64,000 nt of DNA from a bacterium (GTDB taxonomy: Bacteria; Patescibacteriota; Minisyncoccia; Phycocordibacterales; Phycocordibacteraceae). This document shows, piece after piece, positions 10,567 through 40,059 of the stretch. Position 1 is the first letter of the stretch; every line of letters begins with the position of its first letter. The notes under the pieces were generated by a model. The model saw only the letters and a program-made list of their open reading frames with translations, did not search any database and was not told the DNA's origin. A program made the position numbers and the translations under genes. The DNA is taken from positions 448,001-512,000 of the forward strand of contig JBBCGK010000001.1 of NCBI GenBank assembly GCA_037200965.1. The letters are read 5' to 3'.

Positions 10567-10577
10567 AGCGTGAGAAT

Positions 10578-24549: not shown

Positions 24550-24585
24550 GTTGCACAACCTCCTTTTTACGAACGATCCTGCAGG
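24550..24585 (-). repeat. 36-bp array repeat, copy 1 (distal to cas genes; 34 nt from the tatD start)
   Basis: Exact match to the 36-mer. Confidence 0.95.
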
Positions 24586-24594
24586 TTAAAAGCC

Positions 24595-24903
24595 GTGACT
24601 GATTTTCATCGAAAGCACGGCTACGACGTGGGGACCGGGAACATGGCGGTCATGTCGCTCAGAATTGGACTACTCATAGAAGAACTGGGTGAACTCCACG
24701 CCGTGGTTTCAAAGGGTGTTGGCGACATTTCAGAGGAACACGCAGACCTCTTGTATCTACTTCTTGGAAACTGCGTCACGCTTGGTATTGATATAGAAAC
24801 TGCTTTCTTTGCAAAACATGCCATTAACATGCGGAGGGAAGCCAAGGTAGTGAGGGGGAACCGCCGTGTATCGGATTGGTCCCATGAAAAATCTCAGGAA
24901 TGA
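24595..24903 (+). CDS. MazG-like nucleoside triphosphate pyrophosphohydrolase (all-alpha NTP-PPase)
   Basis: 102 aa. ...RIGLLIEELGELHAVVSKGVGDISEEHADLLYLLLGNCVTLGIDIETAF is the EExxE...EExxD MazG signature. The start is 9 nt after repeat 1. Confidence 0.7.
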   Translation: MTDFHRKHGYDVGTGNMAVMSLRIGLLIEELGELHAVVSKGVGDISEEHADLLYLLLGNCVTLGIDIETAFFAKHAINMRREAKVVRGNRRVSDWSHEKSQE

Positions 24904-25931
24904 AAGCTACAGTCATCATCGGTGCGCAGTATGGCAGCGAAGGAAAAGGTAAGATTGCAGCTTATCTTTCAGATGAGTTCGCTCGTGCAGTTCGAACTGG
25001 CGGGCCAAACTCGGGGCATACCGTCGAGCGCAATGGCACGTTCTATCAAGTTCGAGCGGTCCCTAGTGCCTTCGTGAACCAACAATGTCGCCTCGCGATT
25101 GGTGCCGGGGCCATAATAAACACTGCCGTACTATTAGGAGAATTAACGGCATGTGGTATTGTCGAGGGGCGTTTGATAGTTGACCCTCAGGCTGTCATAA
25201 TTGATGAAGAATATCAAAATTCGGAACTAGATTTAATCAGTTCGATTTCGTCCACCGGACAAGGCGTTGGTGCAGCAATCGCAGCTAAGGTCTTACGTCG
25301 GAAAGTAACTCTCGCAAGAGACGTGCCCGAGTTGCGGCCACTGCTTGCCGATGTTGCTGGCACGATCAATTCCGAACTCCAACAAGGCCTAGCTGTAATG
25401 ATTGAGGGGTCGCAAGGATTTTTCTTGAGTTTGCATCATGGTTACTATCCGTTTGTAACAGGCAGGGAAACGACCGCAAGTTCATTTTGCGCCGAAGTAG
25501 GAATCGGTCCCAAAGATGTGGGTCAAGTGATTGGAGTTCTCCGCACCCACCCGATTAGAGTTGGCGGCCCTTCGGGACCTCTTCAAGACGAAATCGATTG
25601 GCAGACCGTCACCGCCGAGTCGGGCTACCCAACACCGCTGTTAGAGATAACTACCGTTACCAAACGAATTCGACGCGTCGGGAGGTTCTCAATGGCCGAA
25701 GCTAAACGATCTTTGATGATCAATTCGGCGACCCAAATTGCTTTAAACTTCGTCGACTACTTGGACCATGCAAACTTTGGACTTAGAAGCTACACCGCAC
25801 TGACTGCTTCAACAAAAAAATTCATCGACGCACTAGAGACACAAACGGGAGTTCCCGTTTCGCTGGTGGGCACGGGGCCCCGTAACAGCGATATGATAGA
25901 CTTACGACGCGAAAAGAACCTCCCCCATTAG
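24900..25931 (+). CDS. short-form adenylosuccinate synthetase homologue (PurA family; candidate PurZ-like)
   Basis: GAQYGSEGKGKI (P-loop). GGPNSGHTV. ISSTGQGVGAA. MIEGSQGFFLSLHHGYYPFVTGRETTAS. TTVTKRIRRVGRFSMAEAKRSL. GVPVSLVGTGPRNSDMIDLR. These align along E. coli PurA. The protein is 343 aa against 432 aa. Its start ATGA overlaps the MazG-like stop. Confidence 0.8.
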   Translation: MKATVIIGAQYGSEGKGKIAAYLSDEFARAVRTGGPNSGHTVERNGTFYQVRAVPSAFVNQQCRLAIGAGAIINTAVLLGELTACGIVEGRLIVDPQAVIIDEEYQNSELDLISSISSTGQGVGAAIAAKVLRRKVTLARDVPELRPLLADVAGTINSELQQGLAVMIEGSQGFFLSLHHGYYPFVTGRETTASSFCAEVGIGPKDVGQVIGVLRTHPIRVGGPSGPLQDEIDWQTVTAESGYPTPLLEITTVTKRIRRVGRFSMAEAKRSLMINSATQIALNFVDYLDHANFGLRSYTALTASTKKFIDALETQTGVPVSLVGTGPRNSDMIDLRREKNLPH

Positions 25932-25939
25932 ATACCAGC

Positions 25940-26692
25940 ATGAAAAACCAATACTTTGGCGACTTGAGCGACTATAAGAAGTACGGTTTGCTGCGCACAC
26001 TTTCGATTGAGGGTGAGTGCTCGCTCACTGTGTGTTGGATGCTGACGCGAGATGATCAAAGTACCGACGGGCGGCATACAACTTATTTGGCGGACGTAAG
26101 AGAATGGCGCAACCATGAGCCGTTGGTATTTGATCTACTCGCGGACGCAGTCTTCAAAAATTCCCGTAATCTCGAAATAGTTGAAAAGTCCGGACTAATA
26201 CCGAACTCAAACTACTTTCGTGAGGAAATCGGCGATGCTCCCTCCCAACGGGAAGCTTTTTTTGCCCGATTGGCAGATGAAGCCCGCAATTCTGATATTG
26301 TGTTCTTGGACCCCGACAACGGCCTTGAAGTGAAGTCAGTCCCCTATGGCTCCAAGGGAGCACATAAGTACATTTATCGGTCTGAAATCGAAAAGTTATC
26401 TCGGAATGGACTTTCAATCTTGCTGTATCAACATTTTGGTCGGAAAGAACGGTCTGAGTTTATCCGAGCTATTGCATTGAAACTCATCGATTGGCTGAAT
26501 GTGGAGGAAGTATTTTCACTTCGGACGACGCATACCGTATTTTTTCTTGTGCCGAAAGCTGCCCACAGGTCGCGAATAGATCGATCCCTCCAGGCAGTAA
26601 ATAGACAATGGGGAGATAAGATCTTTATCGAGATACACTCTAAGGAGTCTGTATCAACGGTTACAACGAAAAATCAGTTAGACCTACTCTAA
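25940..26692 (+). CDS. hypothetical protein
   Basis: 250-aa ORF that is AT-richer than the core genome. No confident motif was found. Confidence 0.5.
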   Translation: MKNQYFGDLSDYKKYGLLRTLSIEGECSLTVCWMLTRDDQSTDGRHTTYLADVREWRNHEPLVFDLLADAVFKNSRNLEIVEKSGLIPNSNYFREEIGDAPSQREAFFARLADEARNSDIVFLDPDNGLEVKSVPYGSKGAHKYIYRSEIEKLSRNGLSILLYQHFGRKERSEFIRAIALKLIDWLNVEEVFSLRTTHTVFFLVPKAAHRSRIDRSLQAVNRQWGDKIFIEIHSKESVSTVTTKNQLDLL

Positions 26693-26765
26693 GTAAGTGA
26701 GCAACATGGATATTGGAAAGGAGCCTGACTTCGCCTCGGATGCCTACTTTGATAATCCGCAACAA

Positions 26766-26801
26766 GTTGCACAACCTCCTTTTTACGAACGATCCTGCAG
26801 G
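26766..26801 (-). repeat. 36-bp array repeat, copy 2
   Basis: Exact match to the 36-mer. Confidence 0.95.
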
Positions 26802-26803
26802 AC

Positions 26804-27418
26804 GATATCCACAAATCACTGCTGCGCAGCGCGGGCCTCGCGCATCTCTCGGCGGATGAGATTGGGGACTTGAGGGACTTGGCAGCGCATGAGCTACGGA
26901 ATGAGACCGCGGACCGCGGTGGTCTCATGGCGGGATTGCGACTGCGCCTGCAACAATGCGACACACGGCTATCACGCCTTACAGACGCGCTCCTCGACCA
27001 CCTCATCGAAAAGCAGGAATACGAAGCCAAGAAGGCCGCGCTCCTGGGCGAGCGGCGCGAACTGCTAGACAAACTGGAAAGCCCGGAGGCTTCGCGTCAA
27101 CCCGCCGACGGCGTGCTGCAAGCATTGGAACTGCCAGATGTCGTGGAAACACGCTACGAAATGGCTTTGCCGGACCAACGGCGCCGCATTGCGTCTGCAA
27201 TCGCTTGGAACCTAACTGGTAGCGGAAAAGAGGCCGTACCTGAGCTGAAATCTCCGTACCGGGAGATCGTACAGTGGCGTCTTTCCAATCCGGTGCGCCG
27301 TAACGGGGAGCGATCGGAACCTGACATAAAGCTGCTATACGAAGCGCTCAAAGAAGTCTGCCGGCGAGAAGACAAGCCGCCGCAACGTCCCCAACGTCCT
27401 GATGTCTCCGGCATATAA
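26804..27418 (+). pseudogene. coiled-coil protein fragment entering at repeat 2 (possibly the C-terminal part of a recombinase-like protein)
   Basis: The reading frame is open from 26693 through repeat 2 (...CTTSFLRTILQDDIHKSLLRSAGLAHLSADEIGDLRDLAAHELRNE...). It then continues as LQQCDTRLSRLTDALLDHLIEKQEYEAKKAALLGERRELLDKLES. It has no credible own start. Confidence 0.35.
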
Positions 27419-28715
27419 GGCGACATACTTTTTCGAGAATTGTCGCGCCTTATGCCGCGTGAATGTCAGGCAGATGCTGTTCTGCATGGATGCGAGCATC
27501 AGCTACTTCGCCCGCACCAACTTCCGCAACCGAAACCAGCTCTTCGGTGTGAGGCAAGCCGACCGTCTTTCGCACCTGTACGTCATCGGCAAGACTGGCA
27601 CGGGCAAGTCCACCCTCCTTGAAACCCTCGCCCGGCAAGACCTTCGGGCCGGGCGCGGCTTCGCCCTCATAGACCCGCACGGCGATCTCGTGGAACGGAT
27701 CGCGAGGGACGCGCCGGAAGCCGTCTATCTGAACGCCCCCGATCCCTCCCAGCCCTTCGGCTATAATCCGCTCCGGAGGGTCAGGGACGACAAGATACCG
27801 CTTGCCGTCTCGGGCTTCCTCGAAACCCTCAAGAAGCTCTGGCCCGACGCGTGGGGCGTGCGCATGGAGCACGTCCTTAGGAATACGCTGTATGCGCTAT
27901 TCGAGCAGGAGGATGCGCGGCTTCCCGATATCCTCCGCCTCTATGCCGACGAGACATACCGGAAGGCGCTCGCCAAGGGGATTAGGAACGATACCGTCCG
28001 CCGCTTCTGGCTCCATGAGTTCGAGCACTTCCACTTTCGCCAGAGGGCGGACGCCGTGGCTCCGATACAAAACAAGATCGGGGCGCTCCTTGCCGACCCC
28101 ACGCTCTATCGCATCCTCGTCGAGCCAAAGGAGGATATCCGCTTCCGTGCCCTCATGGACGGCGGCGGGGTTCTTCTGGTCAATCTCTCGAAGGGCAAAC
28201 TTGGCGAGGACAGCTCGCACATCCTCGGCGCGCTCATCGTCTCGACCCTGGGCCTTGCTGCCTTTAGTCGGGCCGACAGTCCCCCAACCTCCCGCCGCCC
28301 TTTCTTCGTCTATATCGACGAATTCCAGTCCTTCACGACCCTTATGCTCGCCGACATGATGTCGGAGCTGCGGAAGTACGGCGTGGGCCTTACCTTGGCG
28401 CACCAATATATGCACCAGCTTGAACCCGAGATACGGCATGCGGTTCTGGGGAACGCTGGGACGCTCATATCATTCCGTGTTGGCCCCGAGGATGCGTCAA
28501 TCCTGGCGAAGGAGTTTCAGCCGACGTTTGACACACACGATCTCCTGAACCTGCCTAACCACCATATCTATCTGAAGCTGATGATTGATGGGGTGCCGGG
28601 CGGGGCGTTTAGTGCAAATACAGTCGATCATTCGACGCGGGGAGAGACAAAGCTCGCACCGCTACGAAGGACTTCAGACTTGAATGCGGGCGAAAGCGCG
28701 TCTGACTATGTGTGA
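27402..28715 (+). CDS. P-loop NTPase of the FtsK-HerA/TraG (DUF87 / AAA_10-like) superfamily
   Basis: Walker A SHLYVIGKTGTGKSTLLETL. Walker B RRPFFVYIDEFQSF. DPHGDL. Arginine-finger-like RKYGVGLTLAHQ. The real start may be the internal M at ~27474. Confidence 0.7.
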   Translation: MSPAYKATYFFENCRALCRVNVRQMLFCMDASISYFARTNFRNRNQLFGVRQADRLSHLYVIGKTGTGKSTLLETLARQDLRAGRGFALIDPHGDLVERIARDAPEAVYLNAPDPSQPFGYNPLRRVRDDKIPLAVSGFLETLKKLWPDAWGVRMEHVLRNTLYALFEQEDARLPDILRLYADETYRKALAKGIRNDTVRRFWLHEFEHFHFRQRADAVAPIQNKIGALLADPTLYRILVEPKEDIRFRALMDGGGVLLVNLSKGKLGEDSSHILGALIVSTLGLAAFSRADSPPTSRRPFFVYIDEFQSFTTLMLADMMSELRKYGVGLTLAHQYMHQLEPEIRHAVLGNAGTLISFRVGPEDASILAKEFQPTFDTHDLLNLPNHHIYLKLMIDGVPGGAFSANTVDHSTRGETKLAPLRRTSDLNAGESASDYV

Positions 28716-28850
28716 GCGGGATCACGTTTTTTTGCAGATGGCACGCCCGCGTGGGCTGTTTTGGTAATTGCCATAGCGTCTTGGCAACAACTGGGCGTCA
28801 GTACCTGGCTTCCCTCACAGGTTGAATATATTACAGTATAGCTCAACCAT

Positions 28851-29855
28851 ATGTTGAGTCGCCGCATGCCCGGTATTACCGAATTACTTTTGAAAATCGC
28901 GCCCAAGATCGGCGCAAAAGTGCTGATCGAGCCTGAGTGGGGCTACGTCGGGCAAATCGCCTTCCGAAGCGGTCGCAAGCGGTACTTCCGGTTCTCCAGC
29001 GTTGACGTGAATACGCTGGGCGCATCGGAAGTCGCGAAGGACAAAGATTTTGCGAACTTCTTCATGAAGCACATGGGTTATCCCATCGTGAAAGGAAAAA
29101 CGTTCTTCCGGGACGACTGGGCAGAGACAATCCGCTCCAAGCGAAAGATCACGGCCGCCTATCGATACGCGCGACGGCTGGGATTTCCGGTGATTGTGAA
29201 GCCTAACAGCGGCAGTCAGGGGAAAGCAGTATGCTTGGCTCGCACGAAGCGTCAATTCTATCGCGGAATGCGGGCGACCTTTGAGGTGGACAAAGTCGCG
29301 CTTGTCCAAATACCTGTTTCAGGAAAAGACTACCGCATCGTGGTCTTGGACCGAGAAATCATTTCGGCGTACTACAGGGTTCCGCTAAGCGTCGTCGGCA
29401 ATGGAAAAGCTTCCGTAGCGGCGTTGCTCAAGTCGAAGCAGAAAGAGTTTCGGCGCGCCGGGCGCGACACGGCGATCAGGGCCGACGATCCGCGCATAGC
29501 GGAAAAGCTCGAGCATCAGGGACTGAGCTTCGCTTCCGTTCTCCGAAAGGATCAAAAGGTTTTTCTTTTGGATAACGCCAACCTTTCGACGGGCGGCGAA
29601 TCGGAAGACGTAACGGAAAGCGTGCACAAGGAGTTCAGGAAAATCGCGGTGTCGCTTACGAGGGATATGGGACTGCGCCTGTGCGGCGTCGATCTCATGA
29701 TAGACGGGGATATCTCGGAGCCGCCCAAAACGTATTGGGTGCTTGAAGTCAATTCGGCCCCGGGGCTCGATCATTATGCGAAAAGCGGCGCGGCACAAAA
29801 CAAAATCGTCGAAAAGATGTATACGACGGTGCTTAAGAGCTTGGATCGTGACTAG
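28851..29855 (+). CDS. ATP-grasp family ligase (RimK / cyanophycin-synthetase-like fold)
   Basis: YRYARRLGFPVIVKPNSGSQGKAV. DYRIVVLDREIISAYYR. ANLSTGGESEDVT. CGVDLMIDGDI...YWVLEVNSAPGLDHY. Confidence 0.65.
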   Translation: MLSRRMPGITELLLKIAPKIGAKVLIEPEWGYVGQIAFRSGRKRYFRFSSVDVNTLGASEVAKDKDFANFFMKHMGYPIVKGKTFFRDDWAETIRSKRKITAAYRYARRLGFPVIVKPNSGSQGKAVCLARTKRQFYRGMRATFEVDKVALVQIPVSGKDYRIVVLDREIISAYYRVPLSVVGNGKASVAALLKSKQKEFRRAGRDTAIRADDPRIAEKLEHQGLSFASVLRKDQKVFLLDNANLSTGGESEDVTESVHKEFRKIAVSLTRDMGLRLCGVDLMIDGDISEPPKTYWVLEVNSAPGLDHYAKSGAAQNKIVEKMYTTVLKSLDRD

Positions 29856-29947
29856 CTCGTGTATAGTCCATACGACCGATCTTCCTGACACCAATAGGCA
29901 TCGGCCAAATCGTGATTGCTGACCAACGTTTTGCGCCGAGCGACCGC

Positions 29948-30238
29948 CTAGTCGGGATCGTAGGGATTATTGGTATCCGTGCCATTGCGCGAGGAACCAG
30001 ACGGCGAACTATACGGATCGACGCGCTTGTGACCTTGCTCGCCCGTATAGGGGTTCACGTTTGGATACGTCGAGTAATTGTTATAGGGATTGCTGTCAGG
30101 CGATGAGCGATGGTGTGGCGGAACATACGTGCCGTCCTTCCGCACATAGCCTCTGACACTGACGTCCTTCGCTGCCGCCTCAGCGCCAGTGGCCAGCAGG
30201 GTCGTGAAGACCAAAAGGGCGGCAAAAATCTTGCGCAT
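29948..30238 (-). CDS. small secreted hypothetical protein (Pro/Tyr/Asn-rich)
   Basis: MRKIFAALLVFTTLLATGAEAAAKDVSVRGYVRKDGTYVPPHH... has a signal peptide. Confidence 0.5.
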   Translation of the reverse strand: MRKIFAALLVFTTLLATGAEAAAKDVSVRGYVRKDGTYVPPHHRSSPDSNPYNNYSTYPNVNPYTGEQGHKRVDPYSSPSGSSRNGTDTNNPYDPD

Positions 30239-30348
30239 ATTAACTCCGATCAAAAATGCGGCTCGATGCTAGTTTAGTGGCTGGCGCAGGGCCAGAGGAA
30301 TAATCTTCGCAAGCGTGCGTCAGGCCACGCCCTACGGTAACGCGTCGA

Positions 30349-31314
30349 TCAGTTCGCCTCGTCGAAAATCCCATTCAGGATCGCCCCAAGCCGCACCCCT
30401 GCCGCCTGCAAGCGCTCTTCCACGATGGCGGCGCGGTCTTCCTTGTAGTTGCCGTCGGGCGCGAAGACGCGAACGGCGCCACCGGTATACGTCTCGCTGT
30501 CTTCGGAATAGCGGCAGGTGGTGCCGGAGAGCGTACAGTATCCGGTGTCGGGCGCGCGGGAGACGGTGAGCGATTCGTTGGCCCATACCATCGGATCGAG
30601 CGACGCCTTCCACGTTGCCCGCTGCTCGTCCGTGATTTCCTTTTGAAGAACATTGCCAAACGCCTCGCGCCCAGGGCCTGCTGGCTTCGTCTGCGCGATG
30701 TGGAGATCACGCATGACTTGTTCGGGAATGCAGGTGTCCCACACGGTATGGAGCGCGGTTTTGCCGTCATAGGCGCAGCCCGAGACGCCCTTCACGCCGA
30801 CGCTGTTGCCGCCGCGATCATCGGCATACGAAATGTGGAGCGGCTGGTGTATGTCGCCGAGCCAGTGCCCGAGGAATTTGAGGGCCGTGCGCTTCTTGTC
30901 GGTTGAGGCATTCGGGTCTTTGAGGATGGCGATATCGGCGGGGATGGCCGTGAAAAGGCACGTCGCCGCATTCACGCACTTGGCCTCGGGGAAGCTCGTC
31001 CAATCGCGCGGCATATTGATGAAGTGCTCCGCCCTCCGGCTGCTTTGCACATCGCCCTTCTCGTCCGGCCAGGTGCAGGCCCCGTGGAAGGTTCTCGGTA
31101 TCTCCTTGCCGTCAGCGTCCTTAAGCGGGGTTTCTGAGCGGATAAGCTTGTTGACCGCCTTGCGGGCCGTCGGCGTGAGCTCCTTGTATGCGATCTCGCA
31201 GACCGCCTCGTGGCCGGTGCCGCCGAAGGCGAGGGCACCGCTCGTTGTGAGACAAAGACTGACGAAGCCACCAGCTCCAAACAGCGCAAGAAGAACCCGC
31301 CGACGTCCACCCAT
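30349..31314 (-). CDS. S1/P1-family zinc-dependent secreted nuclease
   Basis: Signal peptide. FGGTGHEAVCEIAY. HFINMP. LKFLGHWLGDIHQPLH. LHTVWD. These are the S1-P1 nuclease Zn-ligand motifs. Confidence 0.8.
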   Translation of the reverse strand: MGGRRRVLLALFGAGGFVSLCLTTSGALAFGGTGHEAVCEIAYKELTPTARKAVNKLIRSETPLKDADGKEIPRTFHGACTWPDEKGDVQSSRRAEHFINMPRDWTSFPEAKCVNAATCLFTAIPADIAILKDPNASTDKKRTALKFLGHWLGDIHQPLHISYADDRGGNSVGVKGVSGCAYDGKTALHTVWDTCIPEQVMRDLHIAQTKPAGPGREAFGNVLQKEITDEQRATWKASLDPMVWANESLTVSRAPDTGYCTLSGTTCRYSEDSETYTGGAVRVFAPDGNYKEDRAAIVEERLQAAGVRLGAILNGIFDEAN

Positions 31315-31444
31315 GTACCCGCTCCCCCTCACTATTCGTGCCCAGGATGCGAGGACTCGCCCTAGCCGAAGAACGGATGATGCCCGGATGATTTCACCCG
31401 TCCAAGAGGAATGTGCGCCTTAGACTTCGTATCGGGCCGGGCCT

Positions 31445-32350
31445 ATGCTGCTTCTATTGGTGGGGTGTTTCTCAGGGGGTATTGGCATGACTAGCGGCAC
31501 GCGAGTTTTTCCGACGCGTTCGTATCGGGCATCATTTCCCATTCATGCGCTTCTTGCCGTCTTCGCGCTTCTCGTCGCGGGTGCGTATGGCCCGGCCGGT
31601 TCGGCCTTGGCCGCGACCAGCGCGGCGTCCTTCTGCCTTGACGCATGCCCCGAGGGCGCGCCGGCAAAGAACAAGACGGTCGTGCACCATGTCTATGCGC
31701 TCAGCTCGAACCCCGACACGAAATTCGCCGATTGGGTCGCGTACAAGATCTCCAAAGCGACCATCGGGTCGAACTGTTCGCGCAAGTGGGCGAAGGACCC
31801 GGACCTAGCGGCCGGCACCACGCTCAAGCCCGCCGATTACAAGGACATCAGTGCGGCGCTCCAGTCCGACCGGGGCCATCAAGCGCCCTTGGCAAGCCTA
31901 TGCGGCTCGAAGTTCAATGCCGAGGCGAACTATCTCTCGAACATCACCCCACAAAAGTCCGACCTCAATCAGGGCGCATGGGTGCGGCTCGAAACCGCCG
32001 AACGCAAGCTCATTACGGGCGGCACCGCGAAGACCGTGTATACCGTCACCGGGACGCTCTACGAAAAGAAGATGCCGCCGCTTCCCAAGGCGAGCGTCAA
32101 GCACAAAGTCCCTTCGGGCTATTGGAAGATCGTCGCCGTCGAGACGGACGACGGGATCGACGCCGTGGCGTTCGTCATGCCGCAGGATACACCCAAAGCC
32201 GCCGATTATTGCGAAACGCGCACCACCATCGGCGACGTTGAGACGCGCTCGGGCCTCAAGTTCTTCCTCGATCTCAACGAGACCGACCGCACGCAGCTTG
32301 AGGAGAGCGAGGCGAAGACCGGCCTCTATGAGGATTTGGGCTGCGAGTAG
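31445..32350 (+). CDS. secreted DNA/RNA non-specific endonuclease (Serratia nuclease / Endonuclease_NS family)
   Basis: N-terminal signal/TM. Active-site motif SDRGHQAPLAS (DRGH). Confidence 0.8.
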   Translation: MLLLLVGCFSGGIGMTSGTRVFPTRSYRASFPIHALLAVFALLVAGAYGPAGSALAATSAASFCLDACPEGAPAKNKTVVHHVYALSSNPDTKFADWVAYKISKATIGSNCSRKWAKDPDLAAGTTLKPADYKDISAALQSDRGHQAPLASLCGSKFNAEANYLSNITPQKSDLNQGAWVRLETAERKLITGGTAKTVYTVTGTLYEKKMPPLPKASVKHKVPSGYWKIVAVETDDGIDAVAFVMPQDTPKAADYCETRTTIGDVETRSGLKFFLDLNETDRTQLEESEAKTGLYEDLGCE

Positions 32351-32371
32351 CACGAGCGCGGGAAGATACGG

Positions 32372-32660
32372 CATGCGCAAGGCATTCATACTGACGCTGG
32401 TGGCGTTCTCCGCACTTGCGGCAACCCCACTCATCGCGCGGACCACGGATGCGGAAGTCCGGGGACAAATGATCCGCGAGTCCATCGCAAGCTATCCCGG
32501 CAACTGCCCGTGTCCGTACAGCACGATGCGAAACGGGCGCTCCTGCGGCGGGCGAAGCGCGTACAGTCGGCCCGGCGGATATGCTCCGCTGTGCTACCCG
32601 TCTGACGTTTCGGACGATATGGTGCGCGGCTATCGAAGCACGCATGGGCTCGGGAACTGA
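32372..32660 (+). CDS. small secreted Cys-rich hypothetical protein
   Basis: MRKAFILTLVAFSALAATPLIA (signal), then ...SYPGNCPCPYSTMRNGRSCGGRSAYSRPGGYAPLCYP. Confidence 0.45.
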
Positions 32661-32856
32661 TCGATCCGATTGATATCTGGCGAAGCGCGCAAACGCTCAT
32701 CTCGCTCTATGGCGATGAGGCGGAACAGTTCGCGCTTCGCCGCGCCGCTACCCTGCTCGGCGAAGGAGACCGGGAGGGCCATGCGGCAATGGCAAGCGTT
32801 GCGGAAGCGGTGAAGAAGCTGCGGCAGGAGCGGCCCGAAAGCGGCGATGCCGTCCA

Positions 32857-33264
32857 CTAGTCGGCGTCCGGCAGCTTATCGGAAGCCTCGGCAAACTCCC
32901 GCACCAGCGCGACGATGTGCTTGCGCCGGGCGGGCGACTTGACCTGCGCGAACGCTCTCGCAAGCGCCCGCCCGTCGGCGCTCGAAAGCAGCGGCATTTC
33001 TTCCGCGAACAGTGCCGAACGGGCTTTGTCGTATGCCTCGGAAACGAAGTATTCCCAGGGCAGATCAAGCACCACCATCATCCGCAACAGCGCTTCAAGC
33101 GGCAGCCGGTTGGTTCCCTTTTCATACTTCTGCATCTGTTGGAAACTAACGCCGAGGCGCTTTCCGAGAGCGAGTTGCGACAGGCCGCGCAGCGTCCGTG
33201 CGGCAAATATCTTTTGGCCGATAATCTTATTGATCTCTGACGAACTGTGCTTGCGCGGGGCCAT
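32857..33264 (-). CDS. XRE-family (Cro/C1-type) HTH transcriptional regulator
   Basis: IGQKIFAARTLRGLSQLALGKRLGVSFQQMQKYEKGTNR. Confidence 0.75.
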   Translation of the reverse strand: MAPRKHSSSEINKIIGQKIFAARTLRGLSQLALGKRLGVSFQQMQKYEKGTNRLPLEALLRMMVVLDLPWEYFVSEAYDKARSALFAEEMPLLSSADGRALARAFAQVKSPARRKHIVALVREFAEASDKLPDAD

Positions 33265-33340
33265 TCTCAATCCCGTTATACTATCGATCTCGCAAATTCT
33301 ATGGCGCGAAAACCCCATTGTCGCGCGCAATCTCAGCCTG

Positions 33341-34324
33341 TTACGCCTCCTTCATCCACTCCCGGTGCATGCGCTCCCATTCCGGGCGCGGCGCTTCGAA
33401 CTCTTCCCGGAACCACGGCATATGCTCTGGCACGAAGACCGTCTCGCGCAGGAACGCGAGCGTCGATTTGACGGCGGGTTTTGCGGCATGCACGCGGTTA
33501 TATGAGATGTAGAGCTTGCCGGGAAGGCGAAACGCAAGCGGAAGGGCGACGAGGTCCGGGTCGCCAAGCGCGTGGTAGGTAGGTGCGAGCGCGATGCCCG
33601 CGCCAAAATGCAGGCACCGCTCGAAGAAGCTCGTCTGGTTGGTGAGGATCGACACGTTCTTGACGACGTTTCCGCCCGACCATGCGGCCCAGGATGCCGT
33701 GCGCGTCTGATACTGGGCGAGATCGAGCAACCGGTGCTCGCTAAGCGCTTCGCTCGTCTGCGGCGTCCCGTGTTTTTGCAGATAGGACTTCGACGCGAAC
33801 AGGGCGTAATGGACGGTCGCGAGCGGCCTCGACACCTGATCCGAATTTCCCGGATCGTAGAAGTGGATGCGGATGTCGAAGCTGTCGCTTCGGGGCGCGG
33901 TGATGTCCTGATCGGGCGATACCTTGAGCTCAATGTTCGGATGCCGTTCGAGGAAGCTCGGCATGAACTGCGCCAGCCAGAGGCTCGCAACCCCGTCCGC
34001 GACCAGGATGCGGCAGTCGCCTTGAACGCTGCCTCCGCTGTCCTTCGCGTCCCTGCGAAGGAGCGCAATGCATTTGCGCGCCTCAAACGCGTTCGGAAGC
34101 AGACGTTCGCCGAGGTCGGTGAGCGCGCAGCCGTCGGTGCCGCGTATGAATACGCGCCCGCCGATCCACTGTTCGAAGCTGCGCAGCCGCTTGCTCACGG
34201 TTGCCTGCGTTGATCCGAGCATCGCCGCGGCCCGCTTGATGCTGCCGCCCTCGGCGATTGCGAGAAAATAGCGGAGATCGTTCCACTGCTCGGGCGAGGG
34301 GTCATCACTATTGGAAAGTACCAT
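33341..34324 (-). CDS. LysR-family transcriptional regulator
   Basis: N-terminal HTH LRYFLAIAEGGSIKRAAAMLGSTQATVSKRLRSFEQWIGGRVFIR, followed by a ~200-aa substrate-binding domain. Confidence 0.85.
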   Translation of the reverse strand: MVLSNSDDPSPEQWNDLRYFLAIAEGGSIKRAAAMLGSTQATVSKRLRSFEQWIGGRVFIRGTDGCALTDLGERLLPNAFEARKCIALLRRDAKDSGGSVQGDCRILVADGVASLWLAQFMPSFLERHPNIELKVSPDQDITAPRSDSFDIRIHFYDPGNSDQVSRPLATVHYALFASKSYLQKHGTPQTSEALSEHRLLDLAQYQTRTASWAAWSGGNVVKNVSILTNQTSFFERCLHFGAGIALAPTYHALGDPDLVALPLAFRLPGKLYISYNRVHAAKPAVKSTLAFLRETVFVPEHMPWFREEFEAPRPEWERMHREWMKEA

Positions 34325-34425
34325 CTTCCGTCCCTTGGCTTCCGGGCGGCGATAATCGAATGGCAATTTAAGCTCCGGCAACAAAAAAATGCATAAGGCG
34401 CCAGGCGGCGCCGTGGAGTAATTCC

Positions 34426-35592
34426 TTGGAAAAGAACGATTTTAGCGCGATACGAAGCGGTACCTACGGGCCCGAACATGCCGCAGCGCATCCCGATGGG
34501 GGAAGCGTATGGCTGCGTCCGGCCGGGGTCGGGGATATTCCGTTTGTGCATAGCCTGACCGTCTCGGACATCTCCGCCGAAACGGCACCGGAGGAGGTTA
34601 TTCGGGCTGTTCACGCCCGCAATCCCGATGCCCTGTGGCTTATCGAGCGCCAAAGAGGCGGGGAGCCACCGGCCCCTATCGGCTATTTCGGCTTCCTGCC
34701 GCTCACCGATCCCGGTCTCGACGCGCTCAAGGAAGGCGCGCTCGACCGCAAGAGCCCGCCGCTTGAGCTTGTGGCCGAGGGCGGCACGCGTCCGGCGGCG
34801 GTGTACGTGTGGGGCGTCGTGGCGCATCGCCTAGTGCGGGTCACCGCGCCGCTCCTCACCCTCGCGCTTTCGCCTTACATCGACGTTCCCTTCTACACCG
34901 TCTCCCAGACCGAAGAGGGGCTGCGCTCGGCCCGTAGGCGCGGCTTCGTGCCGGTCGATGCGCGGATCGGCGACCGGGGCGGGCTCGTGCTGCTGCCGCT
35001 TGGCAGCCTTCTTGCGCCGCCGCCAAGCAAAGTCGCGCAGCTCGACGTGATCGTGGCCTCGAACGCCGAGCACCTCATGATGTGCGCCTATGTTCGCGGC
35101 GTGGTGTTCGGCGCGGAGCAGCTCGCCCCCTACCGCGAGGAATTCGACGGCAACGACTTCTGCGGCATCCAGCTTCTGGGGTTCGTGAACAACGAGCCTG
35201 CGGCAGTGCTTCGCATCCGTCACTTCGCGTCATTCGCGAAATTCGAGCGGTATGCCGTGCTCGAGCGCTTCCGCAAAACGCGGATCAAGTACGAAATCCT
35301 GGAGTTCGGAATCGAGCTGTGCCGCCGCAAGGGATACACGAAGCTCTACGCGCACTCGCAGGTGCGCCTCGTCCGCTTCTATGAGCGGTTCGGCTTTCGT
35401 CTGTGCGCCGCGCAGCGTCCGCTCGTCTTCGCGGATCACGAATACGTCGAGATCGAAGCCGACCTCGCGCCGCATCCCGAGGCGATCACGACCGCCACCG
35501 ATCCCTACGTGATCATCCGACCCGAAGGGGCGTGGGACAGGCGCGGCGTTCTTGACCAGTCAGCGGCACGGCCCGCGACTAATCCCGTCTAG
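34426..35592 (+). CDS. GNAT-family N-acetyltransferase (tandem acetyltransferase-like domains)
   Basis: Two GNAT-like cores, one near 34.6-34.9 kb and a second ...CAYVRGVVFGAEQ...YTKLYAHSQVRLVRFYERFGF. Transcribed divergently from the LysR gene. Confidence 0.6.
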   Translation: MEKNDFSAIRSGTYGPEHAAAHPDGGSVWLRPAGVGDIPFVHSLTVSDISAETAPEEVIRAVHARNPDALWLIERQRGGEPPAPIGYFGFLPLTDPGLDALKEGALDRKSPPLELVAEGGTRPAAVYVWGVVAHRLVRVTAPLLTLALSPYIDVPFYTVSQTEEGLRSARRRGFVPVDARIGDRGGLVLLPLGSLLAPPPSKVAQLDVIVASNAEHLMMCAYVRGVVFGAEQLAPYREEFDGNDFCGIQLLGFVNNEPAAVLRIRHFASFAKFERYAVLERFRKTRIKYEILEFGIELCRRKGYTKLYAHSQVRLVRFYERFGFRLCAAQRPLVFADHEYVEIEADLAPHPEAITTATDPYVIIRPEGAWDRRGVLDQSAARPATNPV

Positions 35593-36098
35593 GAGTGCTC
35601 GACATGGCCGGAACGCTCGATTGCTTTGTCCGCCTTGTTGAACTCGACACCTGCGTGCGTGAGTTGGCACAGCGCAAGCGCGCGAATAATAGGATCAGCA
35701 TATCCGATCTTGATGACGTTCTCCTGGCGCTTGCTGAAGCTCGGGAAACGATCCAGGACGACGCGTATGACGAGATGGCGAGGCGGCGAGCGATAACAAC
35801 GGCGGACATAATGCAGTTCGCAAAAGATTAGCGAAAGCGCGCGGCTCTATTCAAAACGCGGCCTACGACAAGTTCGCAACTATTCGTCCGACAACACTCG
35901 CCCGATAACGGATCATTCGGCAACCAGAGGATAATGAGTATATCGCGGGAGCGAAGCATAGGAGACGATGCAGTGCATAGTCCGTCATAAATTCAACGGC
36001 GGCATCCTGATGGTAGCTGTATAACAGCGTGGTGCCGGAACTTCCCCTTGTAGCCAATACCGGGCTTCGTTACAAAGCTTCAAGGGGAGGCTATATGC

Positions 36099-37734
36099 AT
36101 GCTTAATCACACCTTTGGAGTGATCTCGCTGGGTCGTTTCCTCACTGCTATACGTCCTGCGCGTTATGCGGTCCGCTCTGCCAATCGAACACGCTTCGGC
36201 CAAGGGCTGGTCTCGGTCCGCACCCTAGTCGTCGCTGCGTGCGTTGCAATGAGTTGGCTAGCCGCATTGCCGCAAGCCGCCATCGCGAGCAGCGTCTTGA
36301 TGAGCGTGCCAGGCGAAAGCGACGTAAACTCGGCGGGTGCCTTCACATATTCACTTCCTATTGCAGTTCCGCCCGGGACTGCCCGCATCGTACCGCGACT
36401 GTCGCTTGATTATTCCAGTCAAAGCGGCAATGGCCTCCAAGGCCTCGGCTGGTCGCTTTCCGGATTGCCGGCAATAGGAAGATGCGCGCGCACGGTGGCG
36501 CAAGACGGCGTGCATGGCAGTGTCAATTACGACGGCAGCGACAAATTCTGCTTGGAAGGCCAGCGCCTAGTCGCCCTAAGCGGCGTCTATGGCGCGAACA
36601 ATACGGAATATCGTACCGAAATAGAGAGTTTCACCAAAATTATTTCATACGGAACGGCGGGTAACGGGCCAGCCTCGTTCAAAGCGTGGACCAAGTCCGG
36701 TCAAATCCTGGAATTCGGAAACACGGCGGATTCCCGTATCGAAGCGGTCGGCAAGACAACGGTGCGCGCGTGGGCCGTCAATAAGGTTTCCGATGCCAAA
36801 GGAAACTACGTCACGGTCGAATACACCGACGACCAAACTAACGGAGAGGCGTATCCGGTTCGGATTGATTATACCGGCAATCCCAACGCAACGCCGGTGG
36901 TTATGCCGTACAATTCCGTGCAGTTCACATACACAACGCGCGCAGATATCACGATTGCCTATCAGGCCGGTTCGCAGCAGAAGATCACAAAACTTCTCAC
37001 CAATATTAAGACTTATCAAGCCGCGAATTTGGTTTCCGACTATCGCCTTGCCTATCAAGCCGGCTCATCGCTCGCACATTCGCGTCTAACGTCCATCACG
37101 TTATGTGATGGGTCGGGTACGCCGGTATGCCTTGCCCCCACGACCTTTGGCTGGCAGGGTGGCAGCGGTAGCCTGCCGACAATGACCGGGACCGCATCCA
37201 CTATCATTCCGACGCAAAGCGGTGATTTCAACGTTGACGGATTAACAGACCCCTTTGTCAAAGCCCCGTATTTTGGAACTCAGAGCGGAACGTTCGTCGC
37301 GAGCGGCATGACTATAAGCTATACCGACCCCATATCGGGATTGCCGTGGTCGGGTCTAACGGCTTTCCCCAACACAATGGTCGGGTTTGTATTGGGTGAT
37401 ACCGACGGAGACGGGTATAGCGACGTCACCGCGATGCGGGGTATCGCACATGGCGCTTATGCCAGGTTGGTGGTTACGCGCAACGACCAGCTCGGAAATC
37501 TTGGTCAGATCGGCCTGATCGATCCGCTGCATGCTGGCGCCATATTCAGCGGCGACTTCAATGGAGACGCGCGCACGGACGTTTTCGTGACGGGTGTAGC
37601 TTCTTATAACAGTACGACGTATCTGAGCCTGGGGACCGGATCGTTCACCGCCATCAACATGAGTTCGGTATATGAACCCATCACGACCGCCGATTTTGAT
37701 GGTGACGGATGCACCGATTTCTTGGGATCGACTA
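36099..37734 (+). pseudogene. N-terminal portion of an SpvB-domain / FG-GAP-repeat polymorphic-toxin (Tc-toxin TcB / RHS-like) protein, cut at repeat 3
   Basis: SpvB-type N-terminus (RLSLDYSSQSGNGLQGLGWSLSGLPAIGRCARTVAQDGVHGSVNYDGSDKFCLEGQRLV). FG-GAP-like Ca-binding repeats (FNVDGLTD, GDTDGDGYSDV, GDFNGDARTDVF, ADFDGDGCTDFLGS). The homology ends exactly where the 36-mer begins. The 160 aa after the repeat are frame-read-through junk. Confidence 0.7.
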
Positions 37735-37770
37735 GTTGCACAACCTCCTTTTTACGAACGATCCTGCAGG
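37735..37770 (-). repeat. 36-bp array repeat, copy 3
   Basis: Exact match to the 36-mer. It cuts into the SpvB/FG-GAP ORF. Confidence 0.95.
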
Positions 37771-37784
37771 TTTCCGTTAATCTT

Positions 37785-39125
37785 CTAAGTCTCTTGTTGA
37801 GACGCAACACAGCCCCACGCCGCTTTTACCGAGTCATAGATAAAGCCTACCGTCAGAACCTTGGATATAACCGTCGTGGTTGGCAACGCCGTGCCTTCTG
37901 CCACGAACGACGCCCCCCAGGTAATCGCCCGGGCCGTACCGTCGTCTTTGATCCTGAAGATGAGCGTCTGGAAGTTCGTGGGTGTACCGGAGAGATTTGT
38001 CGTCATCGACGTGATCGCGGTCGCAAGAGCAGTAATCGTCACGGCGTCGCACCCATCGCTATTCACTGTAGGGGTTGCCGAAGAAACAATCGTCGTTATG
38101 CGTGGAGTATTTCTCTTATTTGCAAGAGTCTGTGTACCATTGTTAGTCACGACACTGTCAGCGTTTGTGCCTGCAACCGAGATTCTCAAATCTCCTGTTC
38201 CAACGGTAAGCACTCCTGAGGTGTGCGTTGCAACCCAGTTACCGTTACTAATGTTCCAGGTAAAACCAGTAGCACTAAAGAGATCGGCCCATCCAAGCGC
38301 GGTCGTCCCAAGAGCGGCAATATCATTCGTGACCGGGGAAAGAGCGGAGGAGGTAAGTTGTATCGTTCCTGTTCCGTTGATAGCCAGACCAAGCGTATTG
38401 GTTGTAGGAAGGTAGAGGCGATTACCGGTAGCAGTTGAAGAGGTAGGAGCAAAGCCAGCCGCAGTTGCCAGCGATGCCAACGTCAAAGCTCCGGCGTCGG
38501 TCAAGGTTGCATTGGTGGATGTTGCTTGTGCGCCGCGCGAAGTACCATCGGACCGAAGTATAGATTCATCTGTGGCAAAAGTGGCGGCAGCGGTGACTAC
38601 ATTACTCGGTATATCGCTTGTAAGAGCGACGGTACCCGTGGACGCCGGAAGGGTAATGGTGTTAGTTCCAGCGATTGCCGTAGGGACGAGGGCGATGGTA
38701 CCGGAAGTTGAACCCGAGAAGGTTACACCCTGGGTACCGGAAATGATGCCAGTGGTGTCAGCAATAAGCACTGCCGAGTTCTGGATCAGCTTACCAGTGG
38801 TAGTGTCGAAGCGGGCCACGGCGTTATCAGTTGCTGAAGCCGGGCCTACAACATAGGTAGCAAGGGAAGCAGTCGTAGGAATAACATAGCCGCTTTGGAG
38901 CGCTATAGCGATCGTTCCGGAAGTAGTGATCGGTACGCCGGATACCGTAAGTCCTGTCGGTACCGTAGCGTCAACGGATGTAACCGTACCTCCTCCTCCG
39001 GGGAGGTCTATAAGAAGCCTGTGCGTCGTCGGGTCTGCATATAGACGCACAGGCGTCTTGCCGTCAGCGCTTGAAGCTGCTATCAGCGTTGGAACATCGT
39101 TCTGGTCTCGGTAAGCATCAGCCAT
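37785..39125 (-). CDS. phage tail-fibre-like protein (Thr/Gly/Ala-rich beta-helical)
   Basis: MADAYRDQNDVPTLIAASSADGKTPVRLYADPTTHRLLIDL, then ~400 aa of T/G/S/A-rich repeats. The stop lies 14 nt from repeat 3. Confidence 0.55.
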   Translation of the reverse strand: MADAYRDQNDVPTLIAASSADGKTPVRLYADPTTHRLLIDLPGGGGTVTSVDATVPTGLTVSGVPITTSGTIAIALQSGYVIPTTASLATYVVGPASATDNAVARFDTTTGKLIQNSAVLIADTTGIISGTQGVTFSGSTSGTIALVPTAIAGTNTITLPASTGTVALTSDIPSNVVTAAATFATDESILRSDGTSRGAQATSTNATLTDAGALTLASLATAAGFAPTSSTATGNRLYLPTTNTLGLAINGTGTIQLTSSALSPVTNDIAALGTTALGWADLFSATGFTWNISNGNWVATHTSGVLTVGTGDLRISVAGTNADSVVTNNGTQTLANKRNTPRITTIVSSATPTVNSDGCDAVTITALATAITSMTTNLSGTPTNFQTLIFRIKDDGTARAITWGASFVAEGTALPTTTVISKVLTVGFIYDSVKAAWGCVASQQET

Positions 39126-39127
39126 AA

Positions 39128-39318
39128 TCAGGTACTTTGTACGAGTAATTCCCCGGCACTATTGGCGTAGAGCACCACAGGCGTCTTGCCGTCAGCGCTT
39201 GAGACAGCCATGAGTGCAGGAACAAAGTTTGCGTCCCGCAGATCGTCTACCGGCCCAAAGTCCGACCCGGTAGTGTCGTCGTCCGCCATAAGCGCATGTG
39301 TTGAAGGGTCAGCAACGA
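39128..39318 (-). pseudogene. partial tandem duplicate of the tail-fibre N-terminus, running into repeat 4
   Basis: ...FVPALMAVSSADGKTPVVLYANSAGELLVQ is paralogous to DVPTLIAASSADGKTPVRLYADPTTHRLLI of the downstream gene. The frame begins inside the 36-mer. Confidence 0.5.
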
Positions 39319-39354
39319 GTTGCACAACCTCCTTTTTACGAACGATCCTGCAGG
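39319..39354 (-). repeat. 36-bp array repeat, copy 4
   Basis: Exact match to the 36-mer. Confidence 0.95.
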
Positions 39355-39451
39355 AGTATGAGTACTGATACCGTCCAATCTGCCATTGAATATGCGCGAC
39401 ACTCGCCGTCGTGACGACGTTGAGTTAAGTCAATGGCGATTTATGTTACTG

Positions 39452-39973
39452 TCACCGGACCGGCACGAACCCTTCGGGAAGAAACTGCGTCGGGTCCTTC
39501 CACGGTTCAATAGCAACTGCTTTGGGGTATTTGCTTATCATGTAAGCATCGGTGCAATACACCAAACTTTCGGGATCATCGTCCGAAGGCTCAAGGCCTG
39601 AAAATTCAACCATCACAGATTTCTGGTTGGTAATTTTTCCAAAGGTGTCAATGAACCGCTTGATTTTGTCAAACTCACGCACAAAATCGTCGGGCTCAAA
39701 TAGATAGGAATACACTACTACTGTATTCTCGCCGACGATCCGTTCGGAACCGTCCTCATTTTTCACGCGGAAACGCCCAGCGGCGAGCGGCAATTGGGTT
39801 ACACCGCCATTGATCCGCACCATAATTTCCATGGCGCTATCGACCCATTTGTCAAAATTTTCAACAGGCTTCTGATCGCGATCTTGGTTAGGCAAATAAA
39901 CTGCAAACCGTTGTACCGATTCAGATGTATCGGCACCTAGCGCGGTCTTGAGGTCAAAATCTACGAGCGCCAT
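39452..39973 (-). CDS. hypothetical protein
   Basis: 173-aa ORF that is AT-richer than the core genome. No confident motif. Confidence 0.45.
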   Translation of the reverse strand: MALVDFDLKTALGADTSESVQRFAVYLPNQDRDQKPVENFDKWVDSAMEIMVRINGGVTQLPLAAGRFRVKNEDGSERIVGENTVVVYSYLFEPDDFVREFDKIKRFIDTFGKITNQKSVMVEFSGLEPSDDDPESLVYCTDAYMISKYPKAVAIEPWKDPTQFLPEGFVPVR

Positions 39974-39994
39974 GATCGCTTCCTATTAGCCATC

Positions 39995-40024
39995 AATGAA
40001 AAGGCCCCATAGCCGGGGCCTTAA
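39995..40024 (-). terminator. rho-independent terminator after the PRTase-like gene
   Basis: Minus sense reads AAGGCCCCGGCUAUGGGGCCUUUUCAUU. Confidence 0.6.
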
Positions 40025-40059
40025 AGTAGGCAAAATGCCAAATTGCAACGCTGATGCCG

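Follow-up and report, generated by a model that had tools for sequence, protein, structure and literature searches.

A mobile-element operon fragment with a PurZ-like gene, probably captured in a cas1-cas2-associated repeat array

Background

When a gene pair resembling the phage pathway for 2-aminoadenine (Z) lies in a bacterial chromosome, does it mark a former phage, a household purine enzyme or something else? The question is raised by a 2,180-nt segment (positions 24586-26765) of a 64,000-nt stretch of patescibacterial DNA (contig JBBCGK010000001.1, positions 448,001 to 512,000; hereafter "the window"). In this segment a first-pass annotation, made from the letters alone, had noticed a MazG-like nucleoside triphosphate (NTP) pyrophosphatase gene overlapping a short homologue of adenylosuccinate synthetase (PurA), and had proposed a phage-derived Z-genome cluster, with an ordinary archaeal-type short PurA as the alternative. 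Synthesis of 2-aminoadenine has so far been treated as a phage invention, and few archaeal relatives are noted in the literature that we found. Here we present the reading, to which we give a probability of about 0.6, that the segment is a piece of a mobile-element operon captured in a cas1-cas2 array, and that the native module works as a modified-nucleotide conflict system on mobile elements and in defence islands.

Origin of the segment

The segment, its genes and its two borders are as follows.

24550-24585, + strand: repeat 1, 36 nt (GTTGCACAACCTCCTTTTTACGAACGATCCTGCAGG), exact match
24586-26765, + strand: inter-repeat segment 1, 2,180 nt, fragment of an element resembling an integrative and conjugative or integrative and mobilizable element (ICE/IME); blastn, junctions read directly
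24595-24903, + strand: MazG/PRA-PH-type NTP pyrophosphatase domain, 102 amino acids (aa), GTG start (Pfam PRA-PH, MazG)
24900-25931, + strand: Ser-type (PurZ-like) short adenylosuccinate-synthetase homologue, 343 aa, intact (Pfam Adenylsucc_synt, E=7e-59)
25940-26692, + strand: 250-aa protein with an RlmJ-like Rossmann methyltransferase fold, member of a large uncharacterised family, intact
26706-26765, + strand: first 20 codons (60 nt) of a cytochrome P450 gene, ended by repeat 2
26766-26801, + strand: repeat 2, exact match

The three open reading frames (ORFs) of 102, 343 and 250 aa, the ATGA shared by the first two at 24900-24903 and the GSEGKGK P-loop, all reported by the first-pass annotation, were confirmed in the sequence. 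So was its description of the segment as AT-richer and edged on both sides by repeats, which are identical: GC content is ~0.50 in the segment (0.49-0.53 over 24-27 kb) vs ~0.58-0.60 in the flanks. Segment 1 is foreign DNA, AT-richer than its host, and the 343-aa ORF is the only PF00709 gene in the 64-kb window.

An exact-sequence look-up of the 250-aa protein led to a locus (L177) elsewhere in the same assembly (NCBI GCA_037975565.1), on a contig of 4.0 Mb, where a complete four-gene operon encodes a kinase-MazG fusion (297 aa), the PurA homologue (343 aa), the 250-aa protein and a P450 (402 aa; L177 10767-11975; Pfam p450, 7e-14). The operon is flanked by genes for a 205-aa tyrosine recombinase, a serine recombinase, a TrwB-type coupling protein, AlpA and a Replic_Relax relaxase, and because of this set of recombinase/integrase, coupling-protein, AlpA and relaxase genes the locus can be classed as an ICE/IME-like element. 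No phage structural or replication genes occur in the ~20 kb of the element seen, and no homologues of DatZ, PolA/DpoZ-like, dUTPase-like (DutZ) or other phage-partner proteins were found in the window or in L177. The proposed phage Z-genome cluster is not borne out; of the proposed phage-derived DNA the foreign origin stands, but relaxase, T4 coupling-protein and integrase genes are what the source element carries.

By blastn, window positions 24586-26770 align with L177 8647-10830 with 0 mismatches and 1 gap, at the junction. Identity starts at the first base after repeat 1 and stops at the last base before repeat 2 (26765), and the donor element has no copy of the 36-nt repeat. The window copy is without the kinase domain, the native upstream region and all of the P450 gene beyond 60 nt. 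The arrangement recurs in independent assemblies and read sets (L179, L180, L181 and L183). Two contigs of Logan read-set assemblies (2180 and 2208 nt) equal segment 1 and end at the repeats; in GCA_015655515.1 one contig runs from the host genes through repeat 1 and segment 1 and stops at repeat 2, while another runs from cas1-cas2 through segments 5, 4 and 3 into 2.

Within L177 the four-gene operon (8000-12000) has a GC content of 0.47-0.51 vs 0.55-0.66 around it, which suggests that the operon is itself a recent acquisition of the donor element. Directly upstream of the kinase gene lies a short tyrosine-recombinase-like gene (190-205 aa), both in L177 (7138-7755) and in Parvibaculum (L003, 4510-5082), and this gene may belong to the module.

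The repeat array beside cas1 and cas2

The two repeats that edge segment 1 belong to a longer array, whose remaining features are the following.

37735-43704, + strand: repeats 3-6 (starts 37735, 39319, 40730 and 43669) plus the segments between them, exact match
43737-44033, - strand: cas2-like ORF, 98 aa (Pfam, E=3.4e-3)
44030-45085, - strand: cas1 (Pfam, 1e-63; TIGR00287, 221 bits)

The window thereby holds six identical 36-nt direct repeats (0 expected by chance), separated by 2180, 10933, 1548, 1375 and 2903 nt. At one end repeat 6 lies 32 nt from the cas2-like ORF, which overlaps cas1 and is followed by the genes for methionyl-, glycyl- and isoleucyl-tRNA synthetases (MetRS, GlyRS, IleRS); at the other end 16 nt separate repeat 1 from the start codon of tatD. 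Only on the - strand does the repeat fold into a hairpin (-10.4 kcal/mol, z=-2.5), and since the - strand is also the direction of cas1-cas2-tatD, the PurZ-like genes are antisense to the local genes.

With CRISPR adaptation modules and with casposons the array shares identical repeats, a hairpin, adjoining cas1-cas2 and foreign DNA between the repeats; the repeat length falls within the 23-55 nt of CRISPR repeats and the inter-repeat DNA is derived from a mobile element (segment 1). It differs from CRISPR arrays in the length of the inter-repeat DNA (1.4-10.9 kb vs ~30-40 nt, and far outside the ~26-72 nt used to recognise spacers) and in that the window shows no effector cas gene, and from casposons in having neither terminal inverted repeats nor PolB. 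Segment ends appear to cut genes at the repeats: besides kinase-MazG and P450 in segment 1, repeat 3 probably ends an SpvB/FG-GAP ORF and repeat 5 a patatin ORF, while a TTG-start ORF after repeat 2 is suggestive only. Two other readings of the repeats, as att cores left where integrative elements had accumulated in tandem and as attC sites like those of integrons, were rejected, since the donor is without the repeat, genes are cut at the segment ends and the array adjoins cas1-cas2. We read the array as CRISPR-type, with kilobase pieces of foreign DNA as its "spacers". Donor look-ups for segments 2, 3 and 5 led back to the array and to nothing else, no source was found for any segment other than 1, and the exact 36-nt repeat is absent from the JGI metagenome contigs searched.

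Several further observations concern the array. The motif TC[CA]GCAAC[AG]A stands before repeats 2 and 4, and GGTC[TA] before repeats 1, 4 and 6. The largest segment (segment 2, 26802-37734) encodes a HerA/TraD-like ATPase (PADLOC mad8, 1e-16), an ATP-grasp enzyme, an S1/P1 nuclease, a non-specific endonuclease, a LysR regulator, a GNAT protein and the SpvB/FG-GAP toxin-like ORF that enters repeat 3; a 182-aa ORF after repeat 2, considered as the C-terminus of a serine recombinase, has no Pfam match. The patatin-like phospholipase ORF that is cut by repeat 5 lies at 40596-41363 (- strand), and segments 3-5 (37785-43529) otherwise hold ORFs of 446, 173, 218, 523 and 154 aa with no Pfam match. 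Segment 3 also contains a 74-nt direct repeat (39037-39110 and 39165-39238, 74% identity, 128 nt apart) near the start of the 446-aa ORF.

The PurA homologue

The 343-aa protein, publicly annotated by NCBI as PurA, "adenylosuccinate synthetase", has the P-loop GAQYGSEGKGK, in which Ser takes the position of the catalytic Asp13 of PurA. The first-pass annotation had expected PurZ to deviate from PurA here, and rightly so, as the printed alignment gives Ser at the Asp13 column of phiVC8 PurZ. Among the 120 nearest database homologues (45-61% identity) a motif scan gave Ser in 105 and Gly in 7; seven full-length homologues missed by the scan show G-S at the N-terminus, one entry is without its N-terminus, and Asp at position 13 was seen in none. 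By comparison, Asp13 is 99% conserved in PurA, Ser is found in 100% of phage PurZ and PurZ0, and a few archaeal Ser/Gly sequences are basal to phage PurZ and PurZ0 (PMC12884076).

Other active-site features lean the same way. We defined 17 discriminating columns, in which Salmonella and Pyrococcus horikoshii PurA agree, three PurZ agree and the two groups differ; the 343-aa protein has the PurZ state in 11 (including S13, S118, R215, I219, T251 and K255), the PurA state in 4 and neither in 2. Its S13, Y11 and T251 align with S14, F12 and T262 of phiVC8 PurZ, its loop TVTKRIRR is closer to the TVTKKVRR of phiVC8 than to the TGRRRR of PurA, and two further PurZ-like traits are the insertion of two residues behind RVG and the E-I-x-W motif. 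On the other hand, the guanine-recognising Asp of the NTP site, which PurA and PurZ0 keep, is retained (NFVDY), unlike in PurZ, which has NFCNY or NFAQY (Asn/Gln; ATP/dATP use). Since this Asp is retained, GTP is the predicted phosphate donor (rationale: PMC8342488).

Profile and sequence scores tell a different story. The best family model, though a borderline miss, is the short-PurA equivalog NF003295 of NCBIfam (361.8 bits vs a cut-off of 368), compared with 246.6 vs 395.6 for TIGR00184, 192 vs 402 for NF002223 and 219.3 vs 300 for the PurZ model NF038379. Against PDB sequences P. horikoshii PurA scores best (235 bits), followed by phiVC8 PurZ (149), PurZ0 7VF6 (128) and S-2L PurZ (113), and among PurZ and PurZ0 from cultured phages none is more than 36% identical to the 343-aa protein. 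In a neighbour-joining tree (156 sequences, 200 bootstraps) with Salmonella and P. horikoshii PurA as the only Asp-type outgroups, the 154 Ser/Gly-type sequences split from these two in 200/200 bootstraps. The PurZ clade has 95% bootstrap support, and the 343-aa protein falls outside it, among cellular sequences (L007-L013); it forms no supported grouping with the PurZ0 of Arthrobacter phage Lasagna, deep nodes having <20% bootstrap. Judged by similarity scores alone the protein would be an archaeal short PurA; the active-site residues and the tree point the opposite way.

Three known enzymes help to place the protein. i) With archaeal short PurA (P. horikoshii, 2D7U/5K7X) it shares length, two deletions relative to bacterial PurA, the GTP motif and the highest pairwise similarity (42.5% identity), but it differs in the Asp-to-Ser change at the catalytic position, in the 11/17 PurZ-like columns and in its accessory mobile context. 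ii) With PurZ (phiVC8, S-2L, Acinetobacter phages; NF038379; 6FM1, 7ODX) it shares Ser13, Thr251, Lys255, E-I-x-W, the small insertion after the RVG loop and coupling to a MazG-type pyrophosphatase, but its P-loop is GSEGKG rather than GSTGKG, its NTP site has Asp rather than Asn/Gln, its score is below the PurZ cut-off, it lies outside the PurZ clade and no DatZ was found with it. iii) With PurZ0 (GTP-using; Arthrobacter, Gordonia and Microbacterium phages; PDB 7VF6) it shares Ser at Asp13, S118, R215, I219, T251, the GTP-type Asp (NFVD here, TMLD in PurZ0) and a short archaeal-like architecture, but identity is ~35% in the tree alignment (33.5% by tblastn), with no supported grouping. PurZ0 phages always carry DutZ and usually DmtZ, plus a DNA polymerase (PMC12884076), while homologues of none of these were found in the window or in L177 and the host of the present gene is a conjugative/integrative element.

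By its residues and tree position the 343-aa protein is best described as a PurZ-like (Ser-type) enzyme, neither a canonical PurA nor a member of the phage PurZ clade. The ordinary archaeal short PurA offered as the alternative by the first-pass annotation is contradicted by Ser at position 13, the 11 PurZ-type columns and the 200/200 split. The suggestion of a PurZ-like short PurA homologue survives in its signature residues and in the tree split, but not as membership of the PurZ clade or as a score above the PurZ cut-off; and the phylogeny against PurA, PurZ and PurZ0 separated the protein from Asp-type PurA without placing it in the PurZ clade or in a supported group with PurZ0.

The MazG domain and the 250-aa protein

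The 102-aa ORF matches Pfam PRA-PH (E=1e-6) and MazG (E=4e-3). Its parent gene in L177 (8071-8964) encodes 297 aa, of which aa 10-165 make up an AAA_18/cytidylate-kinase-like domain and aa 217-266 the PRA-PH part. The left end of the segment falls in frame at codon 193 of this fusion gene, and the 102-aa ORF corresponds to codons 196-297, starting at an internal GTG; the "102-aa MazG gene" is therefore a 3' remnant and not a complete gene, although the MazG domain and its coupling to the PurA homologue, as first described, hold. A word-based homologue search with the remnant gave 4 matches only.

The best PDB match of the domain is MazZ of phage S-2L (MazZ-1; 7ody), although weak (E=2.6e-3). 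The two share an all-alpha MazG/HisE-type domain, the acidic motif EExxE...ExxD (IEELGE...EEHAD aligned to 7ody, so that the metal ligands E35, E38, E50 and E53 of S-2L MazZ are conserved) and a position directly upstream of, and overlapping, the PurA homologue. They differ in that the guanine-specificity residues I56 and D60 of S-2L MazZ are Y and G here, and in the N-terminal kinase of the native fusion.

The 250-aa ORF has no match in Pfam (even at E<=5), NCBIfam, PADLOC or PDB sequences, nor by tblastn in 50,697 phage records. It has the fold of the RlmJ family (Pfam PF04378) but not its sequence or profile: hhalign of the family profile against Escherichia coli RlmJ (23S rRNA m6A2030 methyltransferase) gave a probability of 0.3%, which is not significant, and there was likewise no significant match to LPL1258. 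A BFVD fold search returned only generic methyltransferase or P-loop matches with poor TM-scores (template-modelling scores). The invariant DPDNG of the family aligns with motif IV of RlmJ, DPPYE, so that DPDN replaces DPPY, and no glycine-rich S-adenosylmethionine loop like the THAGAG of RlmJ is present. The family comprises ~4,400 clusters at 50% identity, with no Pfam model, and, unlike RlmJ, it is found in mobile and defence islands and not beside ribosome genes. It adjoins a PurZ-like gene in 18 cellular loci, and also occurs solo in island-like contexts beside HipA, AbiEii/Fic and SMODS/Schlafen/HNH genes. Its C-terminal fusions (one to a CoA-transferase, one to TPR, others with no recognised domain) are uninformative.

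The cellular Ser-type family

At least 580 loci of the family were found in one-genome-per-species GTDB contigs and 166 more in IMG/VR. The GSEGK-type family spans Dehalococcoidia, Acidobacteriota, Nitrospira, Pseudomonas, Rhizobium, Paenibacillus and archaea. For the neighbourhood survey ORFs were called in 166 loci and clustered. On IMG/VR viral contigs GSEGKG-type homologues stand beside PolA-like and dUTPase-like genes, the classical company of Z clusters, but 64 of 73 cellular loci have a recurrent partner set that differs from the viral one:

38 loci: dCTP-deaminase-fold protein with C-terminal hydrophobic (putative transmembrane) segments
22 loci: AAA_18 nucleotide kinase
19 loci: RNase_H_2 exonuclease plus DUF429 protein
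18 loci: 250-aa family
14 loci: DUF7002
11 loci: IrrE/M78 plus macro protein
10 loci: deoxynucleoside kinase

Rarer partners are P450, an AAA ATPase and a PHP-DUF429-kinase protein. Gene contexts track subclades of the tree; in the window's own subclade P450 and the RlmJ-fold protein are conserved (L177, L003/L010, L007 and L011). Fusions join kinase and MazG (L177, L047) or kinase and the PurA-like domain (Pseudomonas L077, IMG/VR L089), and in L004 a NUDIX gene beside the PurA homologue takes the place of MazG. A number of partners are similar to defence components, namely CapP (4e-23), DarG macro, the viperin-associated kinase VakA, PDC-S44 and IetA/TRIP13, and the Parvibaculum locus abuts a cyclic-oligonucleotide-based antiphage signalling system (CBASS). 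We found no description of a cellular Ser-type PurA-like family in the literature, and nothing relevant on PurA-like proteins or adenylosuccinate synthetase in defence, on DUF7002 or on long-spacer CRISPR arrays.

Two conserved arrangements were seen alongside. In a subfamily of ~535 aa an AAA_18 kinase is fused to the Ser-type PurA-like domain (L077 7440-9050; L089 7464-9047; L031, L052-L086); its neighbours are a CapP-like IrrE/M78 plus macro protein on one side and a DUF7002 protein on the other, and it occurs in Pseudomonas, Rhizobium, Sinorhizobium, Terriglobus and others. In the other, found in Nitrospira tepida (L005/L006) and Acidobacteriota (L039-L075), an operon encodes an RNase_H_2-DUF429 protein (~530 aa), a kinase, the Ser-type PurA-like protein and the dCTP-deaminase-fold protein; the Nitrospira copy adjoins RmuC.

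Proposed pathway and alternative explanations

We propose the following route for the native module. The MazG domain (elsewhere a NUDIX or dCTP-deaminase-fold protein) would convert a guanine (deoxy)nucleoside triphosphate to the monophosphate; the PurZ-like enzyme would condense this monophosphate with aspartate at C6, with GTP as donor, giving a succinylated precursor of a 2-aminoadenine nucleotide; host PurB would remove fumarate to give the 2-aminoadenine nucleotide; the linked kinase would re-phosphorylate it; and the RlmJ-fold protein and P450 might tailor or use the product. By analogy, the route would parallel the phage route of MazZ/DutZ, PurZ, PurB and kinase, and the enzyme-plus-kinase logic of viperin systems (pVip plus VakA). 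The likeness to the latter lies in the logic alone, an enzyme that modifies nucleotides being linked or fused to a small nucleotide kinase in accessory islands; the kinases of the family match the PADLOC VakA model, but the enzyme and chemistry are different. Because the partner genes resemble antiviral components, the role is most likely that of a modified-nucleotide conflict system, antiviral or anti-restriction. The window copy of the module most likely does not operate as a pathway and is captured foreign DNA in spacer position, since the kinase, P450 and native upstream region are missing, the genes are antisense and capture was very recent; given 0 mismatches to the donor, the intactness of the ORFs needs no selection.

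Several points weigh against this conflict-system reading: i) the substrate (dGMP, GMP, IMP or other) is suggested by a handful of residues; ii) Arg is kept at the position of E. coli R303, which PMC8342488 discusses with regard to the ribose 2' position, so that the residues do not fix the choice between ribo- and deoxynucleotide; iii) the two guanine-specificity residues of MazZ are replaced in the MazG domain; iv) the tree is a neighbour-joining one, with two Asp-type outgroups and weak deep nodes within the Ser-type group; v) the RlmJ-fold family stands alone in many islands, so its link to the pathway may be loose; vi) a P450 plus a methyltransferase-fold protein would also fit nucleoside natural-product biosynthesis; vii) insertion by Cas1-Cas2 is deduced from position and repeat duplication; and viii) the window copies of the PurA-like and 250-aa ORFs are intact and may retain some expression.

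The two origins named by the first-pass annotation fare poorly. A remnant of a phage or prophage that replaced adenine by 2-aminoadenine, MazZ feeding PurZ, would account for the MazG-PurA pairing, for Ser at the Asp13 position, for the overlap of the genes (purZ and mazZ overlap in S-2L too), for MazZ as best PDB match and for the many IMG/VR contigs that pair GSEGKG-type homologues with PolA-like and dUTPase-like genes. We nevertheless consider it very unlikely, because the source carries relaxase, coupling-protein and integrase genes and no phage structural or replication genes, phage-partner homologues are absent from window and L177, the protein is below the PurZ cut-off, at most 36% identical to phage PurZ/PurZ0 and outside the PurZ clade, MazG is fused to a kinase and does not conserve the MazZ specificity residues, and the 250-aa partner is without a match in phage records. 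An ordinary archaeal-type short PurA serving purine salvage in a small-genome bacterium is highly improbable as well: NF003295 as best model, P. horikoshii PurA as best PDB match (its identity of 42.5% taken from the tree alignment), the GTP-binding Asp and the NCBI name speak for it, yet a residue 99% conserved in true PurA is Ser here and non-Asp in close homologues, most discriminating columns are PurZ-type, the tree separates the protein from both PurAs in all bootstraps, the gene is part of a mobile-element fragment antisense to the local operon, and Pseudomonas, Rhizobium and Paenibacillus hold members of the family in accessory operons. Even less credible is a metagenome mis-assembly that joined the segment to the repeats. 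The same 2.18 kb does occur on two contigs of one assembly and short repeats can confuse assemblers, but the GCA_015655515.1 contigs reproduce both ends of the structure, the two Logan contigs equal the segment and end at the repeats, and the ICE copy is without the repeat.

The remaining explanations concern function. The array could be an integron-like gene-capture device whose PurZ-like and RlmJ-fold genes are expressed and enable the 0.96-Mb host to modify nucleotides; the two central ORFs are intact and agree with the donor copy without a mismatch, the MazG remnant is nearly complete, with an in-frame GTG and coupling to the next gene, and other segments hold whole genes (nucleases, ATP-grasp enzyme, ATPase). 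We regard such a working cassette as unlikely, since segment ends cut the kinase-MazG, P450, SpvB/FG-GAP and patatin genes arbitrarily, which fits random fragments better, the window copy has neither the kinase nor the native upstream region, its genes run antisense to cas1-cas2-tatD and to the strand of the repeat hairpin, and a capture so recent keeps ORFs intact with no selection. Alternatively, the native operon might make a purine nucleoside natural product or a signalling nucleotide, the PurA homologue aminating a 6-oxopurine and the methyltransferase-fold protein and P450 tailoring it. Conservation of P450 and the RlmJ-fold protein across the window's subclade, the Arg at the R303 position and the departure of the MazG base-specificity residues from MazZ are in its favour, but most contexts of the family are without P450 and have deoxynucleoside kinase, dCTP-deaminase-fold and 3'-5' exonuclease/DUF429 genes instead, which point to the DNA precursor pool, and the partners resemble defence components; we rate this explanation as distinctly unlikely.

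Implications

If the capture reading is true, adaptation machinery integrates gene-sized "spacers", one of them from an ICE of a co-occurring 4-Mb genome. The place of segment 1, as a 2.2-kb "spacer" copied from an ICE, is in itself direct evidence that long DNA was captured in an unusual, cas1-cas2-associated way. The signature active site of the phage 2-aminoadenine enzymes recurs in at least 580 bacterial and archaeal reference genomes, where nearly all of the proteins are annotated "adenylosuccinate synthetase", which flags a systematic mis-annotation of the Ser-type family and raises a testable question: do cells or conjugative elements make Z or a related base, and why? The RlmJ-like fold is the first structural handle on the ~4,400-cluster family that has no Pfam entry. 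The wider idea, that PurZ-type chemistry reaches beyond phages, with Z or some related modified purine nucleotide serving as a weapon against viruses or restriction, and is met here in a cas1-cas2 array of gene-sized "spacers" in a ~0.96-Mb genome like those of the candidate phyla radiation (CPR), is at present a tentative one. The window copy is of lower direct functional interest, because it is a truncated captive.

Other observations in the window

The 23S rRNA gene (1882-6226) is 4.3 kb long vs 2.9 kb for the model, with a group I intron at 2304-2520 (- strand); intron-bearing, enlarged 23S rRNA genes are typical of CPR/Patescibacteria. The window crosses the end of its 960,259-nt contig at 32699/32700, which, together with the intron, suggests a small circular genome of CPR/Patescibacteria type. 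The isoleucyl-tRNA synthetase ORF (52714-56085, - strand; 1,123 aa) contains a stretch, aa 492-674, that matches models of the histidine-phosphatase/phosphoglycerate-mutase family and is an unusual insertion or fusion.

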